NCBI GenBank assembly: GCA_038999725.1
Contig: JAWBWS010000003.1
Coordinates: forward strand, 29,464-93,463
Reading direction: 5' to 3'
Origin: Candidatus Aenigmatarchaeota archaeon
GTDB lineage: Archaea > Aenigmatarchaeota > Aenigmatarchaeia > CG10238-14 > SCSR01
Length of the DNA stretch: 64,000 nt
The translations under genes were made by a program, and so were the position numbers. Every line of letters starts with the position of its first letter. Positions within the stretch are counted from its first letter, which is position 1. Positions 10,398-30,090 of this stretch are shown here, piece by piece. The notes under the pieces are model-generated. The model saw only the letters and a program-made list of their open reading frames with translations, did not search any database and was not told the DNA's origin.

Positions 10398-10417
10398 CTC
10401 TTCTACTTAATATTTTT

Positions 10418-13097: not shown

Positions 13098-13381
13098 TAG
13101 GTATAAATTGCTAATTGGTTTGCTAAAACTTCATTTTTGTAAAATGCCAAAACAATTGCTGCTAAAAAAAGTATCAGCAAAGCATAGGCTACAGGAATTC
13201 TTCCATCAAATTTGAAGAAGGTAAAAATTGGAATTAAGGCAATGAAAGACAAGAAAGTTGGCATGTCTTGAGATTTGAAAATGAAGTGGGATAAAAAAAT
13301 GGAAAAAACCACTAAAATGTAAGGAAGTTGTAATTTGGGGTCAGCCATTTTCTTTTTGATTTTTTTGGTCAAAGTGCCCAT
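13019..13381 (-). CDS. small 3-4 TM membrane protein (GtrA/DUF2304-like size class), hypothetical
   Basis: 120 aa and hydrophobic; sandwiched between two GT-C-like genes. Confidence 0.35.
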   Translation of the reverse strand: MGTLTKKIKKKMADPKLQLPYILVVFSIFLSHFIFKSQDMPTFLSFIALIPIFTFFKFDGRIPVAYALLILFLAAIVLAFYKNEVLANQLAIYTYWLLVVGVACLIIEYLREERKLKIRK

Positions 13382-16300
13382 TTTTTAGACCTTTTCTTTA
13401 AAATTTTTGGTAGAAACAATTTTTTAAAACTGATGTTTTTGCCTTTTTTCCAATCATAGATTAAGTAACCAATGCAAGCTATGAATGTTATACCGGAAAT
13501 CACTAAACCAATCTCAAACCACTCTTGAGGTTTATATCTTATTTCTATTTCATATTCTCCAGTCTTATTTATCCAGAAGCCGTTTATAACTCCATACAAA
13601 GGTATGGAGTGGTATTCTACCGTTTTTCCATTCTCCTTTATTCTTGCAACCCACAAAGGATCATAACTTTCAGCAAAGCTCAGCATGAATGGCTTAGAAG
13701 CATTCACTTGGACTTTCCAGAGGGTTGGGTCGATTTTTTGATAGCTGAGGACTTGAGCTGGAGTTTCGTTCACTTTAAATAAATCTTCTATTTTTTCATC
13801 TGAAGTGTTGGATTCTACCGAATATATCCAAGCTACATCAAGATAAGTTAACGGATATCCGTAAATTGTAACATTTTTTACCCAAACTATATTTGGAATG
13901 GGTTGCTTAGTTTCATGGCCGTGCCATATTTGTAACTGAATATACGCAACGGAAGTGTTTTTAGGCTTATACTCGTAGTTTATTTCCTTCCAGTCAAATG
14001 TTCCTTCTCCTATTCCTCCAGCATAAACACCACCAATATACTGCTTCGAAGAGTTGTATTCAAATATTTTGAAATGGACGCTTTGCCCATTCACTGCTTT
14101 GACAAAAAAGTCAAATTTATATTTCACCCCATATTTTGCTGGAATTAAAGGCGAGTTAATTGTTTTCCACCCCCAAGTTGAATTATAAAGTTCTGTTCTG
14201 AGAGCTTTTTCTTTTTCATCCCAGAAAACTTTGTATATTTGGCTTTCTTTGGTGTATTGTTTCCATTCTTCCACTTCTTCTTCATAAAAGTTCCAAGTAA
14301 ATGGTTGTAGAGTTGTGTCTGGCTCTATTTGAATTTTGTGTGGCCCTTTTTCTAAATAAATTGGCCCAAAATAGGTAAAGTTGTTGGAAGTAATTGAAAA
14401 GCTTTGATTATCAATTCTTATTTTTAAAGCTCCATACAAGTTTATGGCAAATCTGTAGAAGCCATTCTTAACAAATTCAAATTCTCGCCAGGCTTTTCCA
14501 CTTGGCGTTATGACCAAAAATTCTCCATTACTTGCTTTACCGTACTTTTCTTTCTCAGCATTTTCCCTGTAAAAATCACTCTCGCCTTCAAAGAGGTAAA
14601 TTATAGTTTTATTCCTCAACATCTCTTCAACTTCTTTTTCTTTTCTAGCTAGTTCATCACTTGTAACCAGAGCAAACAAATTGATAGCATTGAAACCTTT
14701 AATGTTCCTCAAGATGAGTTTGTGCTTACCTTTCTCCAAATAAAATTCTCCCAAATCTCCCCAAACAAATTTGTTTAATTGTTCTAAAGTGTTGAGTGAA
14801 ATCTCTTTGTTGTCTAAGAAAATTTTTATTGATCCTCCTTTTTGATTTTTAAAGTATCTTATGAGTAAATGATAATTTTCAGTCTTTTCTAGCTTAAAAT
14901 TTATTTCTAGGTCATTTGACTCTGTAAATTTAGATAGATCGTAGAGTTTAACATAATCTAGCCAATAATATGAGTTGGTTTGATTGTTTTGCCAAACCCA
15001 AAACTGTATCTTTATATATTTAGAGTCAGAAGGTATTAAAATTGTAGAGGAGAATTCCTTCCAATCAAATGTTTCATCTTGAGTAATAAAAACAAAATCA
15101 ACTTTTATTTCTTCTTTCTTCTCGTTAAAGTAAATTATCTTTGAATGAACTCCTTTAGAATCTTTACCGGATATTAAAACTTTACACTGATACCAATTGT
15201 CCGGTTTTATTGGCAAATAGTCAGTAGAAATAACTTTCCATCCCCATTCATCACCTTTTTTAATTTCAACTTGTAGGCTATAATTATCATCCTTTGATTT
15301 GGTTGAACTTGTAATATTCAGCACAAGAGGGCTCAAATTTGTAAAGTTTTGTAGAAATTTAGAATCGAAATTATAAATTAGATCATCATCTGTAGGTACT
15401 ATCTTCTCTTTTAACTTAGAAGGTGCCCATGTGAAAACCAATCCTTCACCATAATCTGATTGCCAGTTTTCTATTCCAAATTGTTCTAGGTAAGGATGCC
15501 AGCCCCCATGAAGAGGGTCAGAAGTTGATGCTCTTGACCATAGCTTTGACGGGTTGTGGCGATATGTAGAGTCGAATGTTTTTATCAAGAAAGAATTTTT
15601 GGAAAAGATATTAGAATAAAAATCTGGATTAATTTCTAATTCTGTGGCCTCATTCTCATTCATTCCTGTTAAAACTGACAAAGAATTATTAAGCAAAGAT
15701 AACGAGCCCAATAATTTATAATCAAAATCTTTTGATGATGCTATTTTATTTTTAATGTAGATATTCTTTATTTCGTCTCTTTCTGGCAAATATATGTTAA
15801 TCCCTTCTTTCGATTCTGGATAAATATAATAAATTTTTGGGTTTTCGATTTCTAGATTTGTGATTAAAGCATCTGCTCCAGTCAAATAAGAAATATAATA
15901 AATTGTTTTTTCATCACCTTTTTTGAAAGAATGTTTTAGATATCTACTCAAATCATTTGGAAGATTTATGTAAGGTTTTCCAGTATGATGCGCTTTGAAA
16001 TTTCCTTGATAATTAGAAAGTAAAACTATGGATTTGTTATAGGGTGCTCTATCATAATGTTCTCTATCTTCGAAATAATAACCTTTTCTAAGAATCCCGT
16101 CCAAATCACCTGTAAATCTCTGCCATCCGATAATTAAAGATGATAAAATTATAATAATGCATAAAATTATTCCAATTTTTTTAAATTTCCTCATTCTAAA
16201 AATCCAAGAAAGCAAAGAAAAAATGCAAAGTGAATAACCTAAAACTACTAACGATCCAAAATAGCCAGGAACTCTAAACATCCAACCAATAGAGGGGTGG

Positions 16301-17379
16301 GTTGAAAATAATAGAAACTCATAAAATCTAGAAAAAATAGGATTAAAGTTGGTAATTCCTCTCCATAGAAAAATTCCCAATAATAAATTTGAGCTACCAA
16401 CCACCACCAAGAATTTTTCTTCTCTACTATATCTATTGAATAAAAGTATAGAAACCATCGCTAAAATAGGAATCAAGAAAAGTATAATATTAAAAATGCT
16501 TTCTGGAATAAATGGAAATGGCTTTAATTGTAGATATGGCCACCATGATGCCTTTAAAGTTAAAATGTCAGCAGGTTTATAAGCAGATGAAAACATATAC
16601 GTTGCTTCATAAGATAGCATATAGGAGGGACTAATTTTAGAGATGGGACCAATTGCTGGCAAAAACCAATAAAAATTAAAGAGTAGTAAAAAAATAGAAA
16701 TAAAAATATATTTTTTAATAATTTCTTTCAAAAAAGAAATAGTCCCTCCATAGAATATTATATACAAACTTGTAGTGATAGATAACAAAATAAAGATAAA
16801 TATAATATATCTGAAAATTGGAGTAATTGATAACGTAATTAACAAACACAAAAATAATTTTGATTTTAAATTTTTACTTCTTAAAAAATAAAGTGTAGCT
16901 ACAATTATTGTTGGGAGAAGCGAGTAAGATATTACATAGGTGTTAGGAGGTGAAAATGCTTGTATGGTATATGGATTAATAGAAAATAAAAAAGCAAAAA
17001 CAATAGATAATAAAAAAATGTTTTTATTATCGAATCCAAACAGATTTTCAATTAAATAAAAAAGAGACAGATATGGTATTAAAAATATACATATAAAATA
17101 AAAGATACAATATAATCTTGAAGATATTTCTATTTTAGAGGATAGTGAAGGAATGGTTGCTAACCACAATCTTGCTATTCCTTCATAAAATTGATATGAG
17201 CCATAGTTTGACCAAGTAAAAAAATATTGTAAAATCAATTGTGGAAAGGGTGGAATTATTACATCTCTATGTTCTACAATAATGGAAGTATTTTCGAAAA
17301 GTAAGTAACTTATACTCAAAATTCCAGTAAGCAGACTGAGCAATAAAGCAATAAAATGATATTTGTATGTTTTTGACAT
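13369..17379 (-). CDS. giant (1336 aa) polytopic membrane protein with a large extracytoplasmic beta-rich domain containing two homologous carbohydrate-binding-like repeats and a C-terminal TM; putative GT-C type glycosyltransferase (AftD/DUF3367-like architecture)
   Basis: The N-terminal ~450 aa are multi-TM. An internal repeat is visible: WKVISTDYLPIKPDNWYQCKVLISGKDSKGVHSKIIYF vs WKTINSPLIPAKYGVKYKFDFFVKAVNGQSVHFKIFEY. C-terminal TM IGLVISGITFIACIGYLIY. Confidence 0.45.
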   Translation of the reverse strand: MSKTYKYHFIALLLSLLTGILSISYLLFENTSIIVEHRDVIIPPFPQLILQYFFTWSNYGSYQFYEGIARLWLATIPSLSSKIEISSRLYCIFYFICIFLIPYLSLFYLIENLFGFDNKNIFLLSIVFAFLFSINPYTIQAFSPPNTYVISYSLLPTIIVATLYFLRSKNLKSKLFLCLLITLSITPIFRYIIFIFILLSITTSLYIIFYGGTISFLKEIIKKYIFISIFLLLFNFYWFLPAIGPISKISPSYMLSYEATYMFSSAYKPADILTLKASWWPYLQLKPFPFIPESIFNIILFLIPILAMVSILLFNRYSREEKFLVVVGSSNLLLGIFLWRGITNFNPIFSRFYEFLLFSTHPSIGWMFRVPGYFGSLVVLGYSLCIFSLLSWIFRMRKFKKIGIILCIIIILSSLIIGWQRFTGDLDGILRKGYYFEDREHYDRAPYNKSIVLLSNYQGNFKAHHTGKPYINLPNDLSRYLKHSFKKGDEKTIYYISYLTGADALITNLEIENPKIYYIYPESKEGINIYLPERDEIKNIYIKNKIASSKDFDYKLLGSLSLLNNSLSVLTGMNENEATELEINPDFYSNIFSKNSFLIKTFDSTYRHNPSKLWSRASTSDPLHGGWHPYLEQFGIENWQSDYGEGLVFTWAPSKLKEKIVPTDDDLIYNFDSKFLQNFTNLSPLVLNITSSTKSKDDNYSLQVEIKKGDEWGWKVISTDYLPIKPDNWYQCKVLISGKDSKGVHSKIIYFNEKKEEIKVDFVFITQDETFDWKEFSSTILIPSDSKYIKIQFWVWQNNQTNSYYWLDYVKLYDLSKFTESNDLEINFKLEKTENYHLLIRYFKNQKGGSIKIFLDNKEISLNTLEQLNKFVWGDLGEFYLEKGKHKLILRNIKGFNAINLFALVTSDELARKEKEVEEMLRNKTIIYLFEGESDFYRENAEKEKYGKASNGEFLVITPSGKAWREFEFVKNGFYRFAINLYGALKIRIDNQSFSITSNNFTYFGPIYLEKGPHKIQIEPDTTLQPFTWNFYEEEVEEWKQYTKESQIYKVFWDEKEKALRTELYNSTWGWKTINSPLIPAKYGVKYKFDFFVKAVNGQSVHFKIFEYNSSKQYIGGVYAGGIGEGTFDWKEINYEYKPKNTSVAYIQLQIWHGHETKQPIPNIVWVKNVTIYGYPLTYLDVAWIYSVESNTSDEKIEDLFKVNETPAQVLSYQKIDPTLWKVQVNASKPFMLSFAESYDPLWVARIKENGKTVEYHSIPLYGVINGFWINKTGEYEIEIRYKPQEWFEIGLVISGITFIACIGYLIYDWKKGKNISFKKLFLPKILKKRSKKWAL

Positions 17380-17381
17380 AA

Positions 17382-18404
17382 CTACACTTTTATTTTTGAT
17401 TTAAACTTTTTTTTCATTAGACGAAAAGATTTGCTAAGAGGTATAATTAAATTTTTCTCTCTCGGTTCTTGTAATCTTTTTTTTCTTATCTCTTTTGGAA
17501 TTTGACGGAAAAAGGCCAAAATACCATTGATTATATTTAAGCAATTTCGTGGATTCTTATATAATACTATATTTATCATAGCCTCGAAAAGAGTAAAAAT
17601 CAAAGAAATAGGAATATATTTAATTGATTCTACTGGTGTATAATTTCTAAATAATGTAATTAATTTGTTTCTGATAAACAACGATTGATAAAAGTTTACA
17701 TCTATTTTTTTCTTGTTTATAGTCCCTGATCTTATATGATATATAACCGATGTCGGTACAACGTAGCTTTTATATCCAATTTTGCGGGCCCTCCAACAAA
17801 AATCAACATCCTCATAGTACATAAAATAATCTTCATCAAAAAGGTATCCAACCTTTTGGATAACCTCTCTCTTTATGAACATTGATGCCCCCTCACAAAA
17901 GAAAACTTCAAAAGGATTCTTCAATAAGTGTTCAGGTATTACATCTATTGAGCTGAAAATGTTTCCAATAACATTCATAAAGCCAAATGTAATATCATAT
18001 TTATCTCTTTCAAAATAATTAAACATTATTGGTTGCGCAATACCTACATCCTTGTTTTTTTCTAAAAAATTAATCATATTCTTGAGCCAGTATCTATCCA
18101 CTTCTATATCATTACTTAGCAAAACTATATACTCACCCTTTGCTTTCTTTATACCTATATTGTTTGCTTTCGAGTATCCAACATTCTTCTCTAATTTAAT
18201 TATTTCAATTTTTATACGTTTTTTGTCAGAATGTTTATACACCATTTTTTTAAATAATTCATCGCTGTTATCTGAAGAGCCGTTATCAACAAAAATTATC
18301 TCATAATTTGGATAATCTAAATAAAAAAGCGACTTCCAAAGATTAGAATATTTTGCTCCATTAAAATTTAATAAAATTATACTTACTAGGGGCATTTTGT
18401 TCAT
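17382..18404 (-). CDS. family 2 glycosyltransferase
   Basis: VSIILLNFNGAKY...EIIFVDNGSSDNS is the GT2 N-terminal signature. Confidence 0.8.
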   Translation of the reverse strand: MNKMPLVSIILLNFNGAKYSNLWKSLFYLDYPNYEIIFVDNGSSDNSDELFKKMVYKHSDKKRIKIEIIKLEKNVGYSKANNIGIKKAKGEYIVLLSNDIEVDRYWLKNMINFLEKNKDVGIAQPIMFNYFERDKYDITFGFMNVIGNIFSSIDVIPEHLLKNPFEVFFCEGASMFIKREVIQKVGYLFDEDYFMYYEDVDFCWRARKIGYKSYVVPTSVIYHIRSGTINKKKIDVNFYQSLFIRNKLITLFRNYTPVESIKYIPISLIFTLFEAMINIVLYKNPRNCLNIINGILAFFRQIPKEIRKKRLQEPREKNLIIPLSKSFRLMKKKFKSKIKV

Positions 18405-18407
18405 TTT

Positions 18408-18845
18408 CTACCACAACAAATTATTTTTATCTAAAAGTAACCAAGTTTTGGGTAGATCTTCTGATTTATTTATGTTGATATTTATACCATTAATAAATTC
18501 ACCATAAGCCATCCCATCTCCAGCAACTAATCCAATAGTAGTGTTAATTTCTTTTTCGTTACATGGTAATGTAATAGATGTCTTTTTAATATAATTAAAT
18601 ATTTTCTCAGTGAAAATATTTAAATAATTCTCTTTAGCTAACTCCTCTACTACTATAGTTTTTTCGAAAGACAATTTTATTAAATTTTGTAAATAATATA
18701 TGAATTTTTCTATTATGTAATGAATTGTAGGTTTGTCATAAAGTGGTAATAATGGTTTTGGTAAAATATAACCCGAGAATCCAATTCTACTTCCCATTCC
18801 AGTAGTAGGGATAACACCTTCTTTAATTTTACTTATCTTGGCCAT
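18408..18845 (-). CDS. degenerate paralog of a sugar-phosphate nucleotidyltransferase (internal ~120-aa deletion; probable pseudogene)
   Basis: The N-terminus (KIKEGVIPTTGMGSRIGFSGYILPKPLLPLYDKPTIHYIIE) and C-terminus (EKEINTTIGLVAGDGMAYGEFINGINININ) align with CDS 21004..21792, but the central domain is missing. Confidence 0.5.
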   Translation of the reverse strand: MAKISKIKEGVIPTTGMGSRIGFSGYILPKPLLPLYDKPTIHYIIEKFIYYLQNLIKLSFEKTIVVEELAKENYLNIFTEKIFNYIKKTSITLPCNEKEINTTIGLVAGDGMAYGEFINGINININKSEDLPKTWLLLDKNNLLW

Positions 18846-19861
18846 ACTTTTTCTCCCCTCAAAATTTCAGACCATCCAAAAGGTTTCATCAATTTTATAA
18901 TTATATCATCAGAAACTTTTCTGATATTTTTTTGAACATAATTTCTTTTCCTTATCAAAATTTTAAGATTAAAGAAGTTCCACAAAATTGCTTTCATTGT
19001 TGCTTTAGCTTGGTCAAAGCGACGAATCATAAGATAATAAAATACCGAGGCAAAATATACTACCAAAGTTATAGGCAACCACCTAATTAAATTTTTCATT
19101 TCATAACATTTTATTATAGTTTGTATAATATTTTTTCTTCCATGAAAAGCGACAAACTCAACTGGAAGCTTTTTCATCGTAGCCGATCTCTTATGTAAAA
19201 CAACAGATTTAGGAACATAAACAATTTTATATCCTGCCAACCAAATTCTAAGAGACGAGTCAGTATCATCATGGAGAATTACATAATCGTCGTCAAAAAA
19301 TTTACCTCCAATTTCGTTTATCAAATTTTTTCTAAACAATACTGGAGTTTGCCATATTAGACATATATCTGGTTTATCATCATTTAAATCGGTAGCTCCT
19401 ACCACAATTCCTGCTGGATTTATCGTTATTCCTCTTGCATCTATTTCATTTAGATTATTCCATTTAAGCTTCTTACCAAAGACTGCTCCGATTGTTTTAT
19501 CTTTTTCTATTATTTCTACTAGCTTCGTTAACCAATCTGAGCGTAAAGCTTTATCATCGTTATTTACTAGACATATGTATTCTCCAGTAGCATAAGTTAT
19601 TCCGGCATTACATCCGCCGGCAAATCCTAAGTTCTCTTTATTCCTTACTATTTTTGTTTTTATATTCGGATATTTTCTAAAAAGTTTTTCCACAAATTCA
19701 ACACTTTTATCATAAGAAGCATTATCAACAAAAATGAACTCTAATTCTGGATAATCTGTTTTCAAAAAGGATTCTACTGCTTCTAAAAGTTCTTTCTTTC
19801 CTGAATACATTTCTCCATTATAATTTACCATAATAATTGATACTTTTTTCATTTTATCCAT
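18833..19861 (-). CDS. family 2 glycosyltransferase
   Basis: VSIIMVNYNG...EFIFVDNASYDKS. Confidence 0.8.
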   Translation of the reverse strand: MDKMKKVSIIMVNYNGEMYSGKKELLEAVESFLKTDYPELEFIFVDNASYDKSVEFVEKLFRKYPNIKTKIVRNKENLGFAGGCNAGITYATGEYICLVNNDDKALRSDWLTKLVEIIEKDKTIGAVFGKKLKWNNLNEIDARGITINPAGIVVGATDLNDDKPDICLIWQTPVLFRKNLINEIGGKFFDDDYVILHDDTDSSLRIWLAGYKIVYVPKSVVLHKRSATMKKLPVEFVAFHGRKNIIQTIIKCYEMKNLIRWLPITLVVYFASVFYYLMIRRFDQAKATMKAILWNFFNLKILIRKRNYVQKNIRKVSDDIIIKLMKPFGWSEILRGEKVWPR

Positions 19862-20939
19862 TAGTTAATTCTAGAATTTTTTTATTTAATTCATCGAAGT
19901 TGTCAGTAATTATAATATTTTTAAATTTTTCAAATCCTCTCGCACCCATTTCTGTTGAAATAATTGGTTTATTAAATTTTAAATAATCGAAAATTTTTAT
20001 TTCAACACCAGTATCACAGATGGTTTTTGGATTTATAAAAGCGTCGCAAAGGCTTAGATACGAATCTAGATCTTTCACAAAGCCTTTAAGAATAACATTA
20101 CTAGGTATATTCTCTCTTTTTTTGAACACATCACAAACTTTTCCCAATATTAAAAAGACAATGTTTTTATCCTCCAGTTTCTTTGCAATCTTAATTATGT
20201 TTCTTACACTAATTATGTTAGGCTCAAATTTTGCTCCTACAAATCCAATTACAAACTTATCCTTCAAAATTTGTTTTAGTTTTTTTGGTGGTTTTAATTT
20301 CCTTTTTTTACGAGTGATATAAAATGGTAACAATACAGATATCTTTTTAGGTGAAACTTTATGATGGATTAGGATTTTTTTATCATTATCTGACAAACAA
20401 ATGACCAAATTCGATTTTTTAATTGCATCTAATTCTATATATCGGATTAACCAAATTAATGGTTTGTATATTTCTTTTCTACCTGTTAATTCGTAAAATA
20501 ATTTCCACTCAACATTATGTTCATAGAGAGCGCAAGGAATACCCAAGTTATTAGAAATTTGGGAGATAATTCCTGTAAATGTTGGATAATTAGAAATAAT
20601 TAGATCTGGTGTCTCTCTTTTTATTAATTCTCTTATTCTTCTTTTCCATATAAAATCCACTTTAGATATATAGTGAATGAAAATAAAGAAAATCAAATTC
20701 AATAACCATCTTTTTTCCGAACTTTGATAGTTCTCAGATAAGCCCCTCTTTTTTAAAGAAAAATATTTCATTATTTTGGAGGTAATGGATCCGACATTTG
20801 GAAGTGAAAGACATTTTACTTTATAGCCAAGTTTTTCTTCAAAGAACTTTTTTTGCCTCCAAATAAGAGAGGCTCCGCCGAAAGAATGTTTACTCACTTC
20901 TCTATTGCTGTTGGGATGAATTATTAAAATATTTTTCAT
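19854..20939 (-). CDS. GT-B fold glycosyltransferase (GT4-like)
   Basis: 361 aa with two Rossmann-like halves; C-terminal EMGARGFEKFKN resembles the GT4 E-x7-E region. Confidence 0.6.
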   Translation of the reverse strand: MKNILIIHPNSNREVSKHSFGGASLIWRQKKFFEEKLGYKVKCLSLPNVGSITSKIMKYFSLKKRGLSENYQSSEKRWLLNLIFFIFIHYISKVDFIWKRRIRELIKRETPDLIISNYPTFTGIISQISNNLGIPCALYEHNVEWKLFYELTGRKEIYKPLIWLIRYIELDAIKKSNLVICLSDNDKKILIHHKVSPKKISVLLPFYITRKKRKLKPPKKLKQILKDKFVIGFVGAKFEPNIISVRNIIKIAKKLEDKNIVFLILGKVCDVFKKRENIPSNVILKGFVKDLDSYLSLCDAFINPKTICDTGVEIKIFDYLKFNKPIISTEMGARGFEKFKNIIITDNFDELNKKILELTNG

Positions 20940-20963
20940 CCCCTCACCTTACTCACCAAATAT
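20935..20963. repeat. 29-bp exact direct repeat (copy 1) ttcatcccctcaccttactcaccaaatat
   Basis: Identical to 23411..23439. It contains the start codon and an SD-like GGTGAGGGG upstream of the downstream minus-strand gene. Confidence 0.9.
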
Positions 20964-21038
20964 AGAAAAGAGAGATTTCCATAGAGAAGAGAATCTACCT
21001 CCATTATAGTTTAGTAAAATAATACTCACTAAGGGCAT
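20949..21038 (-). pseudogene. 29-aa N-terminal remnant of a GT2 glycosyltransferase (MPLVSIILLNYNGGRFSSLWKSLFSIFGE*)
   Basis: Hand translation of the minus strand. It matches the N-terminus of GT2 17382..18404 (MNKMPLVSIILLNFNGAKYSNLWKSLF). Its start overlaps the 3' end of the nucleotidyltransferase gene and its stop lies inside the 29-bp repeat. Confidence 0.6.
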
Positions 21039-21792
21039 TTTTTTCACGCTTCACCCCATCCCTAATGATAAGCCAGGCCTTTAGTAAATTTTCTGGGTCA
21101 TTAATATTTATGTTTATTCCATCTATAAATTCGCCATAAGCTTTTCCATCTTTGGCAATTAATTTAATAGTGTTAGTAATTTCTCTTTCATTTCTCGGTG
21201 GGGCTATTGGGGTTTTCTCTATATAATCAAATATTTTTGTGTTAAAGACATATATTCCAGTGCCTCTAATTTTTGAGATAATTTTCTGTGGCTTTTCTAC
21301 TATTTCAATAATTTGATTATCTTTATTGAGTTTAACACAACAAGTAGATCTAAGGGTGTTTTCATCATTTTCACTTACTAAACCTTCAACTACTATCGCC
21401 TTTTTTTGAAAAAATGTTTCTATCAAATTTTGGAGGGAAGCTGTTATTGTGCAGTCGTCTCCAAGAATAGTAATAAATGGTTCATTAATGAAATCCTTCA
21501 CAGAATAGATGGTTGAAGCTATACCGCGTGTTGGCCTTTTTAATTCTATCAAATGAATTTTGGCATTTATAAATTCTTTTGTCTTTTTAAAATACTCTCT
21601 AAATTTTTCTTTGTGATAAAAAATAGGTATATATATTTCTTTAACCCCAACTTTTAACATATTTTCTATTATGTAATGAATTATTGGCTTGTCGTAAAGC
21701 GGGAATAGCGGTTTTGGTAAAATATGACTTAAATATCCCATCCTTTTTCCTTTTCCAGCAGAAGGTATTACGCCAATTTTTATTTTATTCAT
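21004..21792 (-). CDS. sugar-phosphate nucleotidyltransferase (NTP-transferase fold, RmlA/GlmU-like)
   Basis: GVIPSAGKGKRMG...ILPKPLFPLYDKPIIHYIIE N-terminal nucleotide-binding signature; 262 aa. Confidence 0.8.
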   Translation of the reverse strand: MNKIKIGVIPSAGKGKRMGYLSHILPKPLFPLYDKPIIHYIIENMLKVGVKEIYIPIFYHKEKFREYFKKTKEFINAKIHLIELKRPTRGIASTIYSVKDFINEPFITILGDDCTITASLQNLIETFFQKKAIVVEGLVSENDENTLRSTCCVKLNKDNQIIEIVEKPQKIISKIRGTGIYVFNTKIFDYIEKTPIAPPRNEREITNTIKLIAKDGKAYGEFIDGINININDPENLLKAWLIIRDGVKREKNALSEYYFTKL

Positions 21793-21814
21793 CTTTCCCC
21801 GCCTTTCTTAAATC

Positions 21815-22519
21815 TTACTTTTTTGCTGAAACATATAAAAATCTTGAAAATGCAGATCCAAATAATATCTTTAAAAGTTGTTCTGTCCATAAAATAATTT
21901 TTAGAAGAAATTTATTTGAAGTTTTATATAAAATGTCAGGTAATTTTGGACCATATTCTATTCGATTTATAGAAAAATTGTTTTTCCTAAGAATTTTTAA
22001 TAACTCGCTTTTAGATACTCGATTATAAGGAAGTTTGTGAAAAACATTCGCTCTATTTATTGAATATTTATTTGGCATTGAAAATACAAATATACCATCT
22101 CTTTTAAGAACTCTGTTAATTTCATTTAGAACATATCCTAAATTATTAACATATTTTAATACCCTAATTGCGTAAATGAAGTCAAAGGCTTCATCCCTAA
22201 AAGACAATCCTTTAGAAATATCGCATTTTAATATATTAACAAATCTAAATCTTTTTAGTTTTTCTTTGCATCTATTAACCATTTCTTCGGATATATCTAC
22301 CCCCGTAAATCTCACATTTTTTTTCACAACTTCTTTAGAAATTCTGCCAGGTCCAGTACCAATTTCTAAAACATTAATTTTATTTTTTCTGCTTGGAAGA
22401 TTTGATAAAACAAAATTTATTTCATTTTTGCTTATAATCTCCATTCCTTGCGCTCTATATGAATCCAGATACTTTTCACCTAAATAATTATAATATTTTT
22501 TGACATCCACTTTAATCAC
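21815..22519 (-). CDS. class I SAM-dependent methyltransferase
   Basis: Motif I VLEIGTGPGRIS followed by an acidic residue after beta2 (GVDISEEMV). Confidence 0.75.
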   Translation of the reverse strand: MIKVDVKKYYNYLGEKYLDSYRAQGMEIISKNEINFVLSNLPSRKNKINVLEIGTGPGRISKEVVKKNVRFTGVDISEEMVNRCKEKLKRFRFVNILKCDISKGLSFRDEAFDFIYAIRVLKYVNNLGYVLNEINRVLKRDGIFVFSMPNKYSINRANVFHKLPYNRVSKSELLKILRKNNFSINRIEYGPKLPDILYKTSNKFLLKIILWTEQLLKILFGSAFSRFLYVSAKK

Positions 22520-23415
22520 TCAAAATATTTTTCTGGGTTTGAAGTTATAATAATTTCATTATTTCTTATCATTCTACAAATAATATCATAGCATTTTTTT
22601 TCTAGATTTACATAATTCAAATTTTGAAAATAAAGAATTGCATGAATGAATTTGTCATTATCATATGGGATTCTTTTTGAATATATCTTTAATAAATTAA
22701 TTAATGTATTTTCATTTTTTACATTAAATTGATTTTTTATCTTTTCAGGTATAATGAAAAGGAGTTTATTTATTTTAGCCTCTTTTTTGGAGTTATTAAC
22801 CAATTTCTTGATATTGACATTAAAAAATTTGTGATCATTCGGAGGAAGTAGATAAACTTTTTCTCCATCCGTCAATATAATATCCTCAGAGATATATTTA
22901 GCACCTTTCTTAAGTAAATTTTCAACGAGTAGCGTCTTACCTGTTCTCGAAGGAGAAAAAATTAATATCGTTTTTTGATCGTACTCTAAACTTGCACCAT
23001 GAATAAACAAAAGATTTTTCTCTAAAAGTAAATCAAGCGCTATAATATTGGAAAGATGTAAGCCTATTGGCCAAATTTGTCCTAATTCGAAAGGTATAGA
23101 TAGACTTAAACGATTAGCTATAATAGTTTTTTTCTTTAAATTATAAGAAAATCTGAATGATACAGGACCAATTTTTCGTATATAATATATTGTACTGTTT
23201 TTTAGAACATAATATTGATACTTAGCATTTGGTTCTTTTGGAATCTTCACCTCTCCTATTTTAAAATAATATTTATAATTTGCATAAAAATTGAAAAAAT
23301 TAAGTAAAAAGTTATTATATTCCTCGTTATATTTACAGATTGCAAAACCTTTGAGAGGTAGAATTTCTGTTTGAATTTCTACTATATCCGGAGAAATAAC
23401 CCATCTATAGTTCAT
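22516..23415 (-). CDS. hypothetical protein with an HprK-like P-loop (Walker A) domain
   Basis: IHGASLEYDQKTILIFSPSRTGKTLLVENLLKKGAKYISEDIIL resembles the HPr kinase C-terminal P-loop pattern G.SG.GK(S/T)...L...G..L..DD. Confidence 0.4.
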   Translation of the reverse strand: MNYRWVISPDIVEIQTEILPLKGFAICKYNEEYNNFLLNFFNFYANYKYYFKIGEVKIPKEPNAKYQYYVLKNSTIYYIRKIGPVSFRFSYNLKKKTIIANRLSLSIPFELGQIWPIGLHLSNIIALDLLLEKNLLFIHGASLEYDQKTILIFSPSRTGKTLLVENLLKKGAKYISEDIILTDGEKVYLLPPNDHKFFNVNIKKLVNNSKKEAKINKLLFIIPEKIKNQFNVKNENTLINLLKIYSKRIPYDNDKFIHAILYFQNLNYVNLEKKCYDIICRMIRNNEIIITSNPEKYFE

Positions 23416-23439
23416 CCCCTCACCTTACTCACCAAATAT
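23411..23439. repeat. 29-bp exact direct repeat (copy 2)
   Basis: Identical to 20935..20963. Here it encodes the C-terminus YLVSKVRG* of GT2 23412..24272 and the start of 22516..23415. Confidence 0.9.
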
Positions 23440-24272
23440 CCCAATCCTGCTGAAAAATATCCTGTATAGTAACCAATTGCTTTTATTAGTAGTAAAAGGT
23501 GAGATTGTAAACCTAATTTCCAATCCTTTAAAGCTCCCTTCCTTAGTCTGACCTTTTTCTTTAATAAGTCTTTATAGTACCCACTTTTAATAAGATCATA
23601 AGTTGATCTTCCATATCTATAATTCTTTTTAACTAAACTCCATAAACTGTTTGGCTCAATATGCCAACAAGCATCTGGAAGGATGCCAACCTTTTGAGAA
23701 ATCTTATACGCTTCATAATATATTATCGCATGATCATGAGCAATTACACTAGGAAATAACTTTCTTGGGATTTTTTTAAATGCATTTTCTAAAATTTCTC
23801 TTTTGTAAAATCTAGCTAGTAGAACACCTTCTAATGGGTCTATATGAATTTTTGAAAGTTTATGAGTAAGTCGTCTATCAGCATCAAAAAGCTTTTGAAT
23901 CAATGAATTAGGTTCGTAAGTAAATTCCTCAAGAACAAGCATATCATAGTTTTTCATTAATTCCAAAGCTCTTTTAATTACACTTTCATTTTTTAGAATC
24001 TGATCAGAATCCATCATTAGGATAAAACTTCCTTTAGATTTTTCAAAGCCTAAATATCTTGCTCCAAGAAGTTTCCAATTGGTCTGAATAATATCTACTC
24101 CAAATTCTTTAGAAATTTTAACTGTTCTATCAGAACTAGAAGAGTCGACAACAATAACCTCAATATTATTATAACTCTGATTTTTAATGCTCTCTAAGCA
24201 CTTAGCCAAGGTTTTTTCTGAATTGTAAGTTGGAATTACAATTGAAACTAATGGCTTGGAAGCATTTTTCAT
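23412..24272 (-). CDS. family 2 glycosyltransferase
   Basis: VSIVIPTYNSEKTL...EVIVVDSSSSDRT. Confidence 0.8.
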   Translation of the reverse strand: MKNASKPLVSIVIPTYNSEKTLAKCLESIKNQSYNNIEVIVVDSSSSDRTVKISKEFGVDIIQTNWKLLGARYLGFEKSKGSFILMMDSDQILKNESVIKRALELMKNYDMLVLEEFTYEPNSLIQKLFDADRRLTHKLSKIHIDPLEGVLLARFYKREILENAFKKIPRKLFPSVIAHDHAIIYYEAYKISQKVGILPDACWHIEPNSLWSLVKKNYRYGRSTYDLIKSGYYKDLLKKKVRLRKGALKDWKLGLQSHLLLLIKAIGYYTGYFSAGLGYLVSKVRG

Positions 24273-24435
24273 ATTATAAAATAGTTAAGCAAATTAATAT
24301 AAAAGGTGTGGAAGTCTTGTGATAATTACATGGGGTTATGAAGACGAGATTAAAATTGGGAACAAGAAAATTGTTTTCAAGCCATTATGGAAATGGTTTT
24401 TGAATATTTAGATAATTTAAGATTGTTGTTATTTT

Positions 24436-25521
24436 TCACTTCTTTTTTATAACCATTTTTATAATCTTCTCGAACTCTTTAGCACTTCTATCCCAATCAA
24501 ACTTCCTAGCCCATTCCAAAGCATTCTTACTCAATTTACTCCTTAGCTTCTCATCCTCTAAAACTTTTATTATGGTTTGAGCCAAAGCCTTGGGATTGTT
24601 TTCAACCAACATTCCATTGTAATTATCTTTCAAAGAGTCCCTTAACCCCGGAACATCGTAAGCTATGGCTGGTGTCGCTAATGCATTAGCATCTGTAACA
24701 ACTTGCCCCCAACCTTCCCTTACTCCAGGCACGACAATAACCCAAGCCTTTTTCATCAACTCAATTTTCTTTTTTTCATCTAAATATCCAAAAAACCTAA
24801 CTTCCCCCGTTGATATTTTTTCCAATTTTCTTCTCAAATAGCCATCGCCGACCATCCATAATCTAACATCGCTCATCCTTCTCCTCACAATCTTAAAAGC
24901 TTCCAAGACATCTTGAGGCTTTTTTGCCCTTTTCATCCTCCCAACAAAAATTATTGTTGGTTTCTCGGCTTTTTTTGGAGGTTTTTTAAGAGGCTTAACA
25001 TTTGCCCCATTGTGAACAATAAAGACTTTTTTAAACCCTAAGCTCAGCAAATCCATTTTTGTGCTTTCTGAAACGGTGATTGTTGGGATATCAATGTAAT
25101 TCTTTAACCACTTGTTCTCGAGCCAGTAATAGCCAATCCAACTTATTGGAAAAGATGTCTCATAAAACCAAAATTCCCTTGCTAGCTGATGAATTAGACA
25201 AATTACTTTCTCCCCCCTGACAAACTTTGGGGCAAAAAATGGTATTGTGTTGATTTCATCTATTACTACATCAAACCCCTCTTTAGAGAAATACTTTTTG
25301 TAATATTCTTTCGCCTTTAAGTAGAGGGAATACTTTCCACCCTTTCTAACAATTCTTATCCCCTCTAGGGACTCCTCTTTCTTACAGCCTGGAAATTCTG
25401 AGGTAAAGAGTGTGACTTCATTCCCTTTTGCTATCCTCTTGAAAATTTCATGTGTGTATCTCTCTGCTCCCCCAGCCTCAGGATTTTTTATGTCTCTCCA
25501 ATTGAACACCAATATCTTCAT
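24436..25521 (-). CDS. GT-B fold glycosyltransferase (GT4 family)
   Basis: C-terminal EGWGQVVTDANALATPAIAYDVPGLRDSLKDNYNGMLVE matches the GT4 E-x7-E region. Confidence 0.75.
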   Translation of the reverse strand: MKILVFNWRDIKNPEAGGAERYTHEIFKRIAKGNEVTLFTSEFPGCKKEESLEGIRIVRKGGKYSLYLKAKEYYKKYFSKEGFDVVIDEINTIPFFAPKFVRGEKVICLIHQLAREFWFYETSFPISWIGYYWLENKWLKNYIDIPTITVSESTKMDLLSLGFKKVFIVHNGANVKPLKKPPKKAEKPTIIFVGRMKRAKKPQDVLEAFKIVRRRMSDVRLWMVGDGYLRRKLEKISTGEVRFFGYLDEKKKIELMKKAWVIVVPGVREGWGQVVTDANALATPAIAYDVPGLRDSLKDNYNGMLVENNPKALAQTIIKVLEDEKLRSKLSKNALEWARKFDWDRSAKEFEKIIKMVIKKK

Positions 25522-26375
25522 TTCCTCAACCCATCATAATATCTTAAAATCTTCAAACGATAGAAGATTGCAGCAGTATCCAAAACAATCCTCATCACAT
25601 CCCTTACCTTAACTCTACTACCAATCCTTTGAAAGTGTAATTCAACAGGAGCTTCAACAATTCTGAATCCTCTGTGGTTAGCGTTGACGAGCAACTCCAA
25701 GTCAAAAGCATATTTCTTGCACAAAACTCTTGGGAAAACTTCTTTCAAGACCTTATATTTAAAGAGTTTTAAGCCAGCTTGTGTATCTCTTACACTCAAA
25801 TTAAACAAAAATTTTGTTATTAATTGATAACCGTAGCTTAAAATCCTTCTATGTAAAGGATAATCAATTTTTGACAAAGGATGTCTTTTCGAGCCGACAA
25901 CAACATCTGCACCATACTTCTTCATGAAATCAATAAATAAAGGGATTTGTTTAGGATGCAAATCTAAATCAGCATCAATAAAAGTAATGAGTTTTCCGGA
26001 ACAAAAATTGAACCCATATTTTAAGGCAGACCCCTTGCCTCCATTTTCTTTCCTAATAACTCTTACCCTTCTATCTCCTCTAGCAGCTTTTATTGCTTCA
26101 TCGTAAGTGTTATCAGAAGAGCCATCATCAATCACAATTATTTCATAGTCCAATCCAGAAGCATCAAGCACTTTCTCTATTTCTCTTATACTCTTGAATA
26201 TAATCCTACCTTCATTCCAAGCTGGAACTATTACAGATAGTTCTTTCATTTTCACTCTCTCCTTAAATTTAAGTAAGAAAAACAATAAAAAATAATTTCC
26301 ATCCTTGCTACTCTTGCAGCAAGACAAGCGACTTTTGTATTGAAAGAAAATAAAGCTTTTGTCAAGAGGCTTCAA
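25518..26375 (-). CDS. GT2 dolichyl/polyprenyl-phosphate sugar synthase-like glycosyltransferase (DPM1/AglJ/GtrB-like); the true start is probably the internal Met at MKELSVIVP
   Basis: LSVIVPAWNEGRII...EIIVIDDGSSDNT...KGSALKYGF is the signature of Dol-P-sugar synthases. Confidence 0.7.
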   Translation of the reverse strand: MKPLDKSFIFFQYKSRLSCCKSSKDGNYFLLFFLLKFKERVKMKELSVIVPAWNEGRIIFKSIREIEKVLDASGLDYEIIVIDDGSSDNTYDEAIKAARGDRRVRVIRKENGGKGSALKYGFNFCSGKLITFIDADLDLHPKQIPLFIDFMKKYGADVVVGSKRHPLSKIDYPLHRRILSYGYQLITKFLFNLSVRDTQAGLKLFKYKVLKEVFPRVLCKKYAFDLELLVNANHRGFRIVEAPVELHFQRIGSRVKVRDVMRIVLDTAAIFYRLKILRYYDGLRK

Positions 26376-26380
26376 ACAAG

Positions 26381-27760
26381 TTATGCCAGAAACTGCTCCT
26401 CATATTTCTTCAAATACTCCACACTTTTCTTCACATCAACAAAAAGCTTCTCCACATAAACAACATGCTCTTTCTCTATTCTTTCAGCTTTTTTCTCTTT
26501 CGCAACTTCAAAGGCAGGAGCCAACAATTGAATTGCATACCTCAAGCTAGTTTTACTACCAATTTCAGTTAGATAATCCAAAGCTTCCTCACTAATCTTA
26601 ATCTTCTCAGATTTTGCTCTTATCTCCAGAATCTTCCTAATTTCCTCTTTCTCGTAGGGCTTTGTGTTTATTATCAGCAACCTGTCAAGCAAATCCAAAG
26701 GCATGCCATGAGCAGCTTTAATGTCAGTTCCCCTTATTGTTGCAAACCCCCTGTTTGTTGCAAAAATTATTATCGGAGCCAATTCCTGCTCCAAAGCCCT
26801 ATTCAAGAAAGCAAAAGTTTCTATGTCGAGCATGCTACATTCGTCAATGAAAACAACCCCTGGTATAAGCTCACATTTACCTTCCTGGACCAAAGTTTTT
26901 ATGTATTCATCAACCTCCTTCCTAACTTCAGGCTCAATTTCTTTTGACTCCTTTCCCCCAAAGAACAAGCTGAAGATATCGCTTCCAGCTCGTGAGCTGG
27001 CCACATCCAAAGCATGCAGAGTCACAGGATAAACAAACTCTTTCTCTTTCAACACTTTCCCCTTTGGCACAGGCACGGGCTTAACTGTTGTTAGATCAAC
27101 TTTCTTCTCCTTAGCAGCTTCTTCACTTATACCAACCTTAACTATTCTGCCACCATCCACATCTATGTTCACAACATCCCCTGTTTCTACACCTTGTTGA
27201 ATCAATTGAATTGCAAAATTTTGGTCCATGGTTAATTTCTTGCTTTCATCTTTGGTTGCAATTTTTATTGTTGCCCCAACTGGGATTTGCTGATAAGGAT
27301 TGTAGGGATGTTGAGCTTTTTCTATCGAAATTTCTTTAACTTCGCCCTCATATATCTTCCTCATCTCATGAATTCTTGCAGCTATGGCCTTTCTCAATGT
27401 TTGTGTGAGAAATTCGGTTTTCTTGATATCTGTGGAAAAAATTTCACTTGCCGCCAAGTGAACAAATGGAACATCTCTCCCCAATTCCCTTGCTATACCG
27501 CTTCCAAGAGCAGTCTTTCCTGTTCCAGGTGGTCCGGCCAACAAAATTGCTCTTCCAGCAAACTTACCTTCTTTTATCAGCCTAACAATCAAGCCAGCAG
27601 CCTCTCTTGCTTCTATTTGGCCAACCATTCCATCTGCTACTGGCTTTGCCTTCAAACCATCAAGACCCAAGCCTTGGATATGTGAATGAGCAGCAACCCT
27701 TTCCCACTCGCGCAGAGATTCGGGGATTTCCCTAATCTCTGCCATAACCTCACCTTTCAA
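26381..27760 (-). CDS. RuvB-like AAA+ ATPase, TIP49 (RuvBL/Pontin-Reptin) homolog
   Basis: GLGLD...GMVGQ..AREAAG...AGRAILLAGPPGTGKTALGSGIARELG..VPF; 459 aa with an insertion domain between Walker A and Walker B. Confidence 0.7.
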   Translation of the reverse strand: MKGEVMAEIREIPESLREWERVAAHSHIQGLGLDGLKAKPVADGMVGQIEAREAAGLIVRLIKEGKFAGRAILLAGPPGTGKTALGSGIARELGRDVPFVHLAASEIFSTDIKKTEFLTQTLRKAIAARIHEMRKIYEGEVKEISIEKAQHPYNPYQQIPVGATIKIATKDESKKLTMDQNFAIQLIQQGVETGDVVNIDVDGGRIVKVGISEEAAKEKKVDLTTVKPVPVPKGKVLKEKEFVYPVTLHALDVASSRAGSDIFSLFFGGKESKEIEPEVRKEVDEYIKTLVQEGKCELIPGVVFIDECSMLDIETFAFLNRALEQELAPIIIFATNRGFATIRGTDIKAAHGMPLDLLDRLLIINTKPYEKEEIRKILEIRAKSEKIKISEEALDYLTEIGSKTSLRYAIQLLAPAFEVAKEKKAERIEKEHVVYVEKLFVDVKKSVEYLKKYEEQFLA

Positions 27761-28370
27761 TCTCTATTTTTAGCACACCATCTTTAAATTTTTTACTTAT
27801 GCTTACATTCTTTGGAATCGGAATCAGTTTGAAATAAGCCTTATCGCCAGCAAAAGCCTTCACTTCTATACTCTGCTCCAATCTCTTAACCTCTATATCT
27901 TCCTCACTTTTAACATCAGGCAGTTTTATAAGTATTATCTGTTTGTTTCCTATGGTTTGAACTTCTGACTCAGGCTCTTCTGTAACTTTTGGCACTTTAA
28001 CTTCCTTCTCCTCTTCTTCAACCTCTTCTACAGCAGGCCTAACGCCAAGCCTTCTTTTTAGTTCTGGTTCAAGTTTTTTGTATTCACCAGAAGTCTTTAT
28101 TTCAATTTTTGGTTTCATTCCTCTACCACTGTGAACGGTTATGCTAATGCCCCCGCCCCTAATCCCAGGCTTTATCTTGAAGCTTGGTATCTTGAAAAAA
28201 TCAAACCCGAACATCTTGTCTATCTCTTTAAGCTCTTTATCTATATCATCAAAAATGCTCTCAAAAGGAGCCTCTTCTTCAATCTCCCACCCACAATAAG
28301 GGCAAAAATTCCAATCTTCTTTTATTTTTTTACCACACTTGGGACAAACCTTTTTTTCAAACATAGACAA
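27750..28370 (-). CDS. zinc-ribbon plus Hsp20/alpha-crystallin-like domain protein
   Basis: N-terminal CPKCG...CPYCG; C-terminal LIKLPDVKSEEDIEVKRLEQSIEVKAFAGDKAYFKLIPIPKNVSISKKFKDGVLKIEIER resembles an ACD core. Confidence 0.45.
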   Translation of the reverse strand: MSMFEKKVCPKCGKKIKEDWNFCPYCGWEIEEEAPFESIFDDIDKELKEIDKMFGFDFFKIPSFKIKPGIRGGGISITVHSGRGMKPKIEIKTSGEYKKLEPELKRRLGVRPAVEEVEEEEKEVKVPKVTEEPESEVQTIGNKQIILIKLPDVKSEEDIEVKRLEQSIEVKAFAGDKAYFKLIPIPKNVSISKKFKDGVLKIEIER

Positions 28371-28484
28371 CCATCCAATTGTGTTTAAACTTGAAATATT
28401 TTTGTTTACAAGATATAAATTTCTTTTACATTCAAAACAATTTTCATTTAAATACTTGAAAATAAAAATTTAATTGTGGAAAAA

Positions 28485-28640
28485 ATGGGTAAGAAACCTT
28501 TTGGTGGATATTCGATTTGCTTTAAAGGAAGGAAGGAAACCCTTGAACAAGTATTTGGTACAGCTCCTCTGACCCCAAGTGCGATGACGAAAAAGCTTTG
28601 GGCTTTTGTGAAAGCTAAAAAACTGGCAAAGAAAGAATAG
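28485..28640 (+). CDS. small basic ORF (51 aa), hypothetical
   Basis: Unlisted ORF MGKKPFGGYSICFKGRKETLEQVFGTAPLTPSAMTKKLWAFVKAKKLAKKE in an otherwise empty intergenic gap. Confidence 0.2.
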   Translation: MGKKPFGGYSICFKGRKETLEQVFGTAPLTPSAMTKKLWAFVKAKKLAKKE

Positions 28641-28688
28641 AGTCGAAGAGAAGTTAAAAATTCTTTTGTTTGTGCTTAGCCAAAATTA

Positions 28689-29021
28689 TCAAAACCTCTT
28701 CATCTTTCTTGAAATTTCAATTCCTTTCTTCTTCTCTTTCTTCAAGCTTTTCCCAATTTTTTTACCAAGCCTCTCAAACAAAAGCTTGAGAGCAGAAGGA
28801 ATGTCCCAACCATAAGCTTTGGCCACAAAAATTTTGTCGGAAGCTTTAACCTTAGCGTGAAAGGAATACTTCTTCCTTCCAGCAGGGCTATGTACATCAA
28901 CATCAAGCTTTAAGCTTGTTATCTTCCAAATTTTTTCAAATTTTTTCAAGAATTTGCTAACTTCTTCTTCTATTTCAAATTTCTCTGGAATTGGTGCATG
29001 AGAAATCTCAACTTGAACCAT
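28689..29021 (-). CDS. HPF/YfiA (ribosome hibernation factor, S30EA)-like protein
   Basis: Size and residue pattern align with bacterial HPF (V.I......I.E.....V..K..K.EK.....I.S.....V...............V......F.A.A.G.D...A...L...L.++I.K...KEKKK). Confidence 0.4.
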   Translation of the reverse strand: MVQVEISHAPIPEKFEIEEEVSKFLKKFEKIWKITSLKLDVDVHSPAGRKKYSFHAKVKASDKIFVAKAYGWDIPSALKLLFERLGKKIGKSLKKEKKKGIEISRKMKRF

Positions 29022-29051
29022 AATTTTATTTTTTGTTTTTATTCTAAAAAA

Positions 29052-29801: not shown

Positions 29802-30090
29802 ACAATCCCTCTTTCTTATATAATTCTTCTGCTTTCTTAAATAAATTTAAATCAAATCCTTTTAAATCTTGTACCACATCAGCCTTAAGCTTACCGTCAA
29901 CCAAAGAACAAAAAACTCTCACCAACTCACCTTCTTTAACCTCTTCTTCAGAAAAAATTTCTATCTTCCCGGTCTCGTCTTCAAGAATAAAAGAATTCTC
30001 CGAAACTTTTGCTATTTTGCCAATTAAAGCAACCTTTGAATCGATTCTTGAAATTGATGAGATTTTTCTCGGCAAATAATGTTCTACCAC
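29794..30090 (-). CDS. small OB-fold (nucleic-acid-binding) protein, hypothetical
   Basis: ALIGKIAKVSENSFILEDETGKIEIFSE...GELVRVFCSLVDGKLKADVV is an OB-fold-like pattern; overlaps the PCNA start. Confidence 0.35.
   Translation of the reverse strand: MVEHYLPRKISSISRIDSKVALIGKIAKVSENSFILEDETGKIEIFSEEEVKEGELVRVFCSLVDGKLKADVVQDLKGFDLNLFKKAEELYKKEGLYV

Follow-up and report, generated by a model that had tools for sequence, protein, structure and literature searches.

How did a single operon come to hold two homologous pairs of nucleotidyltransferase and glycosyltransferase genes, each pair with one intact member, together with two exact copies of a 29-bp sequence? The question is raised by a 64-kb window (contig JAWBWS010000003.1, positions 29,464 to 93,463) of a hot-spring Aenigmatarchaeota genome, in which a tightly packed surface-glycan operon is read on the minus strand from 24272 to 13369; all coordinates given here are positions in that window. 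The operon begins with the family-2 glycosyltransferase gene GT2c and continues with a gene for a 299-aa protein (unknown299), a methyltransferase (MT), the nucleotidyltransferase NTaseA and a glycosyltransferase stub, the last two constituting module A. The glycosyltransferase genes GT4a (family 4) and GT2b (family 2) follow, and then module B, which comprises the nucleotidyltransferase relic NTaseB', the intact glycosyltransferase GT2a and a large membrane protein. The preliminary description of this DNA had proposed a mosaic history marked by recombination scars and had attributed the two modules to segmental duplication in place. The mosaic is borne out; the duplication is not. We conclude that this operon was probably built by recombination between diverged cluster types, and we favor a reading in which a fragment of one type (type II) was inserted at a short junction, J, in a backbone of the other (type I), rather than copied locally.

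The type II clusters were reached through P0112, a 249-aa protein found by nucleotidyltransferase (NTase) search. An intact type II cluster is present in at least five other Aenigmatarchaeota contigs (L088 to L092), all with the order GT2(275)-J-unknown299-MT231-NTase249-GT2A(342)-large open reading frame (ORF), with a further methyltransferase gene, MT243, before GT2(275). Window positions 23460 to 20962 correspond to L088 8332-10832 at 95.1% identity over 2501 nt, and the identity is even along the segment (90.5 to 97.5% per 200 nt). A tandem duplication of the NTase-GT2 module in place, followed by divergence and reciprocal gene loss, would account for two homologous two-gene modules 2.6 kb apart in the same orientation, with one intact gene each and complementary survivors. 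Indeed, the kinship of the modules holds at the DNA level: self-blastn aligns 18706-18839 with 21662-21795 (77%, 134 nt) and 18323-18605 with 20966-21237 (68%, 284 nt), the latter unbroken across the boundary between the NTase 3' end and the GT2 5' end. These comparisons were made by local BLAST and protein family alignment; a MAFFT global DNA alignment misplaces the N-terminal block. However, the modules are not each other's closest relatives, since module A is 95 to 99% identical to the type II clusters of other metagenome-assembled genomes (MAGs) and about 68 to 78% to module B. Nor do they share one extent: module A is contiguous with two type II genes absent from module B (unknown299 and MT231), module B directly follows GT2b with a 13-nt overlap, and GT4a-GT2b, lying between the modules, represents a third sequence lineage. 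Moreover, NTaseB' is barely nearer to the NTaseA cluster representative (150.9 bits) than to NTases of unrelated metagenomes (137 to 145 bits), a marginal difference. Because module A is 95 to 99% identical to clusters in other genomes and only 68 to 77% identical to module B, the modules did not arise by duplication in this genome, and we consider that explanation highly improbable.

The genes on either side of the type II segment have different relatives. GT2c is 91% identical at the amino acid level (89 to 94% nt) to its counterparts in contigs L086 and L087, versus only 35% to GT2(275) of L088. GT4a-GT2b is 95.8% nt-identical to L086/L087, with homology beginning exactly at 20963. At the left junction, similarity flips across a short anchor from L086-like upstream to L088-like downstream; among exact runs of at least 31 nt, L086 matches 23463..23433 and L088 matches 23460..23412, so that the last 49 nt of GT2c (23460..23412) are identical to L088. 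At the right joint, homology to L088 ends in TTTTCTAT (...TCTAT), after which the window continues as the GT2c 3' end and L088 as GT2A. Homology to the GT2c 3' end starts with ATATTTGG, and its overlap with L088 is AT, a 2-nt microhomology situated 17 nt before the GT2c stop. The L088 homology stops at 20962 and that to L086, L087 and L093 resumes exactly at 20963; the right edge of the repeat (ATGAA) is also the end of homology between the cluster types, L088 having ATGAG there. The sequence relationships and breakpoints are thus read directly, and the switch between cluster types at both joints supports the mosaic history.

We likewise confirm the exact 29-bp repeat that the preliminary description had placed at the C terminus of one GT2 (YLVSKVRG, then stop), with a Shine-Dalgarno sequence (SD) and ATG supplied to the next gene at both sites. 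Both copies are exact and each carries GGTGAGG and the ATG of the following gene; none of 100 shuffles produced such a match, even when three mismatches were allowed. It is the sole exact repeat of at least 20 nt in the window besides the tandem arrays near 9.3 and 10.0 kb and a 21-mer common to the two NTase N termini. The repeat is part of J, by which we mean the conserved last ~50 nt of GT2c followed by the SD GGTGAGG and ATG. J presents stop codons in all three frames before the SD and ATG, and therefore any gene truncated by a joint in J terminates just before the next start codon. J differs between distant clusters by synonymous changes, the pattern to be expected if the C-terminal peptide and the SD are under selection. 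The fold of J is not better than that of shuffled sequence (z of -0.25 and +0.51) and contains no hairpin, and an Rfam search of the region gave no match; together these rule out an RNA or attC-like element at J.

The recombination mechanism and its direction we infer from this structure: homology-facilitated illegitimate recombination (HFIR) of linear donor DNA. The starting point would have been a type I backbone, GT2c-J-GT4a-GT2b, followed by a diverged resident copy of NTase-GT2-large membrane protein. A type II fragment of ~2.45 to 2.5 kb, bearing the P-loop protein unknown299, the methyltransferase, NTaseA and ~28 codons of GT2A, would then have entered at J. Its left end would have joined by homology, inside the ~28 to 50 nt of J common to both cluster types, and its right end illegitimately, at a point 17 nt ahead of the GT2c stop where the two sequences have only the 2-nt microhomology AT in common. 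With the right joint located within the anchor, a 29-bp stretch of recipient sequence would come to be present twice; GT2A would thereby be truncated, a stop, SD and ATG would be kept for GT4a, and the operon would remain translatable. Both ends of the repeat are explained, since one event places the left and right joints. Indeed, two features expected of an HFIR product are found here, namely one end joined inside sequence that is homologous between fragment and recipient (the anchor) and another joined at a microhomology of a few bases (AT). A Campbell-type single crossover of a circularised fragment at J would yield the same structure. Subsequent recombination between the two 29-bp copies could delete the cassette. 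The resident NTase would be redundant once NTaseA was present and now has in-frame deletions, which may have arisen before or after the insertion. As to relative age, the 29-bp copies are identical, versus 68 to 77% nt identity between modules A and B.

The GT2 remnant after NTaseA is explained by the same joint. The preliminary description had matched it to the N terminus of GT2a, which is correct (21/27 aa, E 2e-13; 63/81 nt, in DNA homology unbroken from the NTase), and the match to the 5' end of GT2A in L088 is 83/84 nt. That each module lacks the complementary gene thus stands as a description; as an account of loss it does not, because the stub is truncated by the joining event itself, with no later decay. 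NTaseA has been altered as well. Relative to L088 and all type II relatives, its 3' end (21040-21060) has a 1-nt deletion in an A-run (AAA to AA) that shifts the last two codons, abolishes the native stop and adds 13 aa across the GT2 stub (262 versus 249 aa). The deletion is present in both MAGs and in the read-derived Logan contig L001.

Table 1. Coordinates of operon genes, repeat copies and joints in the 64-kb window
Feature	Positions	Strand	Remarks
GT2c, family-2 glycosyltransferase, first operon gene	23412..24272	-	PF00535 E 1.4e-26
Left (homologous) crossover interval, anchor	23433..23460	-	exact match to type I (L086) and type II (L088)
Repeat copy 1 (J1)	23411..23439	-	last 8 GT2c codons and stop (YLVSKVRG-stop), SD GGTGAGG, ATGAA of unknown299
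Unknown 299-aa protein (unknown299)	22516..23415	-	P-loop SPSRTGKT; 92% aa to L088; first gene of the putative insert
S-adenosylmethionine-dependent methyltransferase (MT)	21815..22519	-	PF08241 E 5.6e-22; 91% aa to L088; in the putative insert
NTaseA, intact sugar-1-phosphate nucleotidyltransferase, 262 aa	21004..21792	-	PF00483 E 4e-32; 95% aa to P0112
GT2A stub	20949..21047 (GTG start) or 21038 (ATG start)	-	first ~28 codons as in L088 GT2A, then IFGE-stop from the repeat
Repeat copy 2 (J2)	20935..20963	-	illegitimate joint with AT microhomology at its 5' edge; provides GT4a with stop, SD and ATG
GT4a, family-4 glycosyltransferase	19854..20939	-	PF13692/PF13439; 95.8% nt to L086/L087
GT2b, family-2 glycosyltransferase	18833..19861	-	PF00535; 94.6% nt to L085 through the stop; 66% aa to L078
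NTaseB', resident NTase relic, 145 aa	18408..18845	-	at least 2 in-frame internal deletions; catalytic core absent
GT2a, intact resident family-2 glycosyltransferase, partner of NTaseB'	17382..18404	-	PF00535 E 8e-25
Large multi-pass membrane protein	13369..17379	-	carbohydrate-binding-like C-terminal parts; collinear with type II large ORF
AAA_14/DUF4143 ATPase 3'-end remnant (~31 codons)	24293..24411	+	88-93% nt to three sites in L088

HFIR is described for Acinetobacter, S. pneumoniae and P. stutzeri; for Rhs orphan arrays, and for the displacement of type VI secretion system effector-immunity modules in Vibrio cholerae, it has been proposed (PMC5361080 and the references cited there). As in those systems, the conserved 3' end of an upstream gene serves as a one-sided anchor and the other end is joined by microhomology; foreign genes are captured, truncated remnants are left, and strains differ in the modules found at one place. 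In contrast to a bacterial toxin locus, the present case is an archaeal (DPANN) glycan operon, its anchor is only ~28 to 50 nt, and its illegitimate joint lies inside the anchor and so generates a 29-bp direct repeat; in this lineage the process is a putative one, read from sequence. The kind of recombination is already known; the interest lies in the DPANN setting, the resolution of the breakpoints and a junction with multiple alleles.

This allelic diversity is itself directly observed. Among the related contigs retrieved, the GT2c/GT4a junction has at least three states, in agreement with the differences between strains that the preliminary description had led one to expect. Besides the cassette of the window, L086, L087 and L093 have a different insert there, a 761-aa ORF. 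The distant contig L078, with the order GT2c-J-GT4a-GT2b, has no insert: its GT4a, at 46% aa identity to ours, comes directly after the GT2c homologue. L078 was supplied by a scan of JGI metagenomes with GT4a, which returned distant relatives only (40 to 46% aa). L093 comes from SRR21619498, in the same run series as the samples of the window, and thus two of the junction alleles, plus the cassette-less allele proposed below, come from runs of one sequencing series. The preliminary description had suggested diversifying selection by viruses; the three allelic states are compatible with it and do not demonstrate it.

The comparison with these alleles bears on an alternative history, in which a full type II cluster lay directly upstream of a full type I cluster and one illegitimate deletion fused the two, with one endpoint at about codon 28 of GT2A and the other 17 nt short of the stop codon in a second gene of the GT2c family. 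The 29-bp repeat would then be the paralogous 3' ends of two GT2c-type genes. Such a fusion yields an identical final structure and the same 2-nt microhomology joint, and since the GT2c-family 3' end is conserved across the cluster types, two copies in one genome would be expected to share it. However, it calls for an L086-like GT2c before the type II genes, whereas in that position each of the five intact type II clusters carries GT2(275), which is only 35% identical. Moreover, the occurrence of the same GT2c...J-GT4a frame with another insert (L086, L087, L093) or with none (L078) favors insertion, and no genome with tandem clusters was found. We judge the deletion fusion unlikely.

Two further observations concern these relatives. 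At the 3' end of GT2b, the next gene overlaps by 13 nt in each of three contigs (window 18833-18845, L085 1014-1026, L078 3985-3997), and that gene differs among them: the NTase relic in the window, a pyruvyl transferase in L085 and a 408-aa ORF in L078. The GT2b 3' end is a second point of cassette swapping at a gene boundary. Separately, L086 (JAVZBV010000006.1, GCA_038874715.1), a 6.9-kb contig, belongs to a MAG labelled Candidatus Anstonellaceae (Micrarchaeota); its placement there reflects either mis-binning or a very recent transfer between phyla.

Three different contents at one junction could also suggest that J is the target of an integron-like, site-specific system in which cassettes are moved by a recombinase. 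In L086, J-like copies stand at several cassette ends, and the N-terminal fragment of an integrase (3573..4175) lies at the edge of the island that holds the operon. As in an integron, an array position receives varying cassettes, each ending in a related short sequence, and expression is from an upstream promoter. In contrast to the integron, with its attC and attI sites and IntI, no IntI-type integrase is present in 13-26.4 kb, there is no attC-type hairpin and no fixed crossover, and the repeated sequence is a coding gene 3' end plus a ribosome-binding site. Indeed, the extra J-like copies of L086 have as fusion partners the 761-aa ORF and a truncated GT2b, and the position of the joint varies: it lies upstream of the 29-bp core by about 12 and 24 nt, versus none in the window. 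Because these offsets differ, the joints in J are independent illegitimate events rather than uses of one fixed site. A domain search of the operon and its neighborhood found no recombinase gene; the integrase fragment is some 17 kb distant, and the same kind of search detected no catalytic domain in it. The conservation of J, moreover, is explicable by the selection noted above. A site-specific system is thus very unlikely. A recombinase-free variant, in which J is a reusable docking linker for glycan cassettes in hot-spring DPANN archaea, strikes us as doubtful. In that scheme J would anchor the capture of foreign DNA by homology, terminate the truncated upstream gene and re-initiate the downstream operon, and repeated tolerated insertions would give the three junction contents and the extra J copies in L086. 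As for the source of the DNA, a mobile-element or viral origin of the cassette is without support: the cassette had no match in plasmid and phage collections, and the 24-nt J core had none in IMG/VR.

The preliminary description had also raised the concern that the repeat might be an assembly artefact. In an assembly chimera, a co-occurring type II strain would have been threaded into a type I contig via the common J; the samples do hold several related strains, as contig breaks show, and the left junction has a 28- to 49-nt exact stretch common to both cluster types. Logan assemblies are built with k=31, and k-mers seen only once are dropped (PMC12424806). Those made from raw reads of two runs (SRR21619490 and SRR21619492) gave contigs 100% identical to 29823..24252, 23440..20934 and 18967..15945, and the stub-to-repeat joint lies inside one of them, L001, reported in two samples. 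Because the parent sequences share only 2 nt there, this joint is not assembler-made; moreover, the last base of L001 (A) leads into GT4a, not into the unknown gene. In addition, a contig of a second MAG (116,564 bp), assembled from a different sample, bears this out. Of the nine genes that run from GT2a to GT4b, all but MT were looked up there: seven, among them those of the 262-aa frameshifted NTase and the 145-aa relic, encode identical proteins, under consecutive accessions and in the same order, and GT2b is represented by a 339-aa variant from the same 90% cluster. A 49-nt repeat is also below typical read length. A chimera is scarcely credible.

The ends of L001 carry a population signal. 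The contig spans exactly 23440..20934, one base outside each repeat copy. If GT2c were joined straight to GT4a, the cassette-less junction 31-mer would be G+repeat+A (GATATTTGGTGAGTAAGGTGAGGGGATGAAA), and one extra 31-mer of this kind would create exactly the two breaks seen at the ends of L001. As a control, the exact run 18982..18938 common to L085 predicts a contig start at 18967, which is the observed start of L002 and L003. Two other causes of the L001 ends were considered and rejected: a co-occurring L088-type strain would place them at 23441 and 20962, and a junction of the circular or tandem kind (T+repeat+C) at 23439 and 20935, neither pair being observed. From these contig ends we infer that a cassette-less allele co-occurs, either ancestral or produced by deletion between the repeats. 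Two further Logan contigs, L082 and L083, both end exactly at 24252, 21 nt into GT2c; among the relatives retrieved, no exact run ending there was found to account for the break.

Several points weigh against the insertion reading or narrow it. The evidence for the empty-site allele consists of contig ends, and a pair of single-nucleotide polymorphisms, at 23441 and 20933, would give the same ends. No Logan contig retrieved spans the left junction, from the GT2c body through J1 to the unknown gene; its support is the gene order, which is alike in two MAG assemblies. The absence of any difference between the 29-nt copies makes the repeat much younger than the split between modules A and B, and does not establish absolute recency. 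The "donor" and "recipient" could be alleles within one species. Finally, recombination pathways of DPANN archaea are uncharacterised, and HFIR is read here from the sequence of an uncultured MAG.

Module B retains the older resident sequence. Its NTase-GT2a-large membrane protein block is collinear with the type II NTase-GT2A-large ORF at 45 to 77% nt identity, and GT2a is 51% aa-identical to GT2A of L088; by these comparisons, module B is an old, diverged counterpart of the type II block. Within the large membrane protein, a tract at ~15850-16600 is 93 to 98% nt-identical to L088, with flanks at 55 to 67%, and looks like a separate gene-conversion or transfer tract. NTaseB' is an internally deleted NTase homologue, as the preliminary description had proposed on the basis of its termini: besides the self-blastn matches given above, BLASTP aligns it with the 262-aa NTaseA at E 8e-24 and 3e-19. 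In the family alignment it covers NTaseA residues ~1-46, ~118-143 and ~180-243, and the deletions, about residues 47-117 and 144-179, remove the ILGDD (metal/phosphate) and EKP..RG.G.Y (sugar-binding) motifs. A complete NTP_transferase domain (PF00483) is lacking, since NTaseB' has no match in Pfam, and the NCBIfam match is weak (residues 7-49 to galU, 32 bits versus a cut-off of 327). Among 5.8 billion proteins, its only relative was itself. NTaseB' retains many family-invariant residues and an open frame, which suggests recent inactivation, plausibly after NTaseA made it redundant.

Of the putative inserted genes, NTaseA has a full-length PF00483 domain (112 bits versus a cut-off of 21.2, with model positions 2-221 of 245 covered); its best NCBIfam models all fall below their cut-offs and do not assign a sugar specificity. 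The 299-aa protein has no match in Pfam or in PDB sequences. TIGR04352 and TIGR04355 (HprK-related kinases A and B) reach E ~1e-3, far under the curated cut-off.

Bacterial O-antigen and capsule loci are mosaic, and their cassettes are exchanged by recombination in conserved flanking genes. The present locus, a glycosyltransferase cluster, resembles them in its low GC content, its variability between strains and its combination of segments of differing ancestry with pseudogene relics, and differs from them in that exchange occurs at internal junctions (GT2c/GT4a and the GT2b 3' end) with base-resolved breakpoints. In DPANN archaea, which are not yet open to genetic study, variation in surface-glycan islands is believed to underlie differences between strains in attachment to hosts and in susceptibility to viruses. 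The locus offers a base-resolved example of how such an island can be rebuilt: a short conserved gene end is the anchor, the other joint is made at 2 nt, and the resulting 29-bp repeat may allow the cassette to be lost again. It also calls for caution in annotation: a 145-aa "hypothetical protein" is a gutted nucleotidyltransferase, a 262-aa NTase has a frameshifted tail, and an apparent duplication is probably an import. We expect it to be useful for work on archaeal glycosylation and on recombination in uncultured lineages, with little surprise to specialists.

Neighboring genes of the operon either overlap, by 4 to 13 nt, or leave between them anything from a few bases to ~22 nt. A contig of another Aenigmatarchaeota MAG (L084, JAWAZX010000003.1, GCA_038997405.1) is 100% identical to window 29861..8833. 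The GC content of the operon and its island is 0.26 to 0.29, versus 0.35 to 0.40 elsewhere and in the flanks. In related species (L004, L058), TIP49 is 88% aa-identical and the genes directly after it are homologues of window 2507-2926 and 1939-2526; because of this direct continuation, ~2.9-26.4 kb is a lineage-specific island. A scan of GTDB species representatives anchored on TIP49 found no relative with any island gene beside TIP49. Besides the glycosyltransferase operon, the island contains a subtilase, a mucin-like repeat protein, a flippase and a PMT_2-like protein.

Upstream of GT2c, in the spacer that separates it from GT4b, lies an ATPase remnant whose translation ends in ITWGYEDEIKIGNKKIVFKPLWKWFLNI and a stop, corresponding to the C termini of L088 ATPases. 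L088 has three full AAA_14/DUF4143 ATPase copies between its GT4 and its glycan cluster, and homology of the remnant in L086 and L088 begins at one shared base, 24409; the remnant is a further deletion scar, located where the operon starts. The island limits lie at about 2930 and 26380. At the left edge of this ~23-kb island, ORF 3573..4175 (+) encodes 200 aa with a phage-integrase N-terminal SAM-like domain only, ~2.4 kb from a tRNA-Ser gene (1121-1205, minus strand), and may be a relic of an integrative element. ORF 9126..10397 (423 aa) contains exact tandem repeats at 9256-9340 (four copies of a 21-nt unit) and 9975-10056 (a ~20-nt motif repeated 54 nt apart); its product has weak mucin-like matches and is probably a repetitive, heavily glycosylated surface protein.

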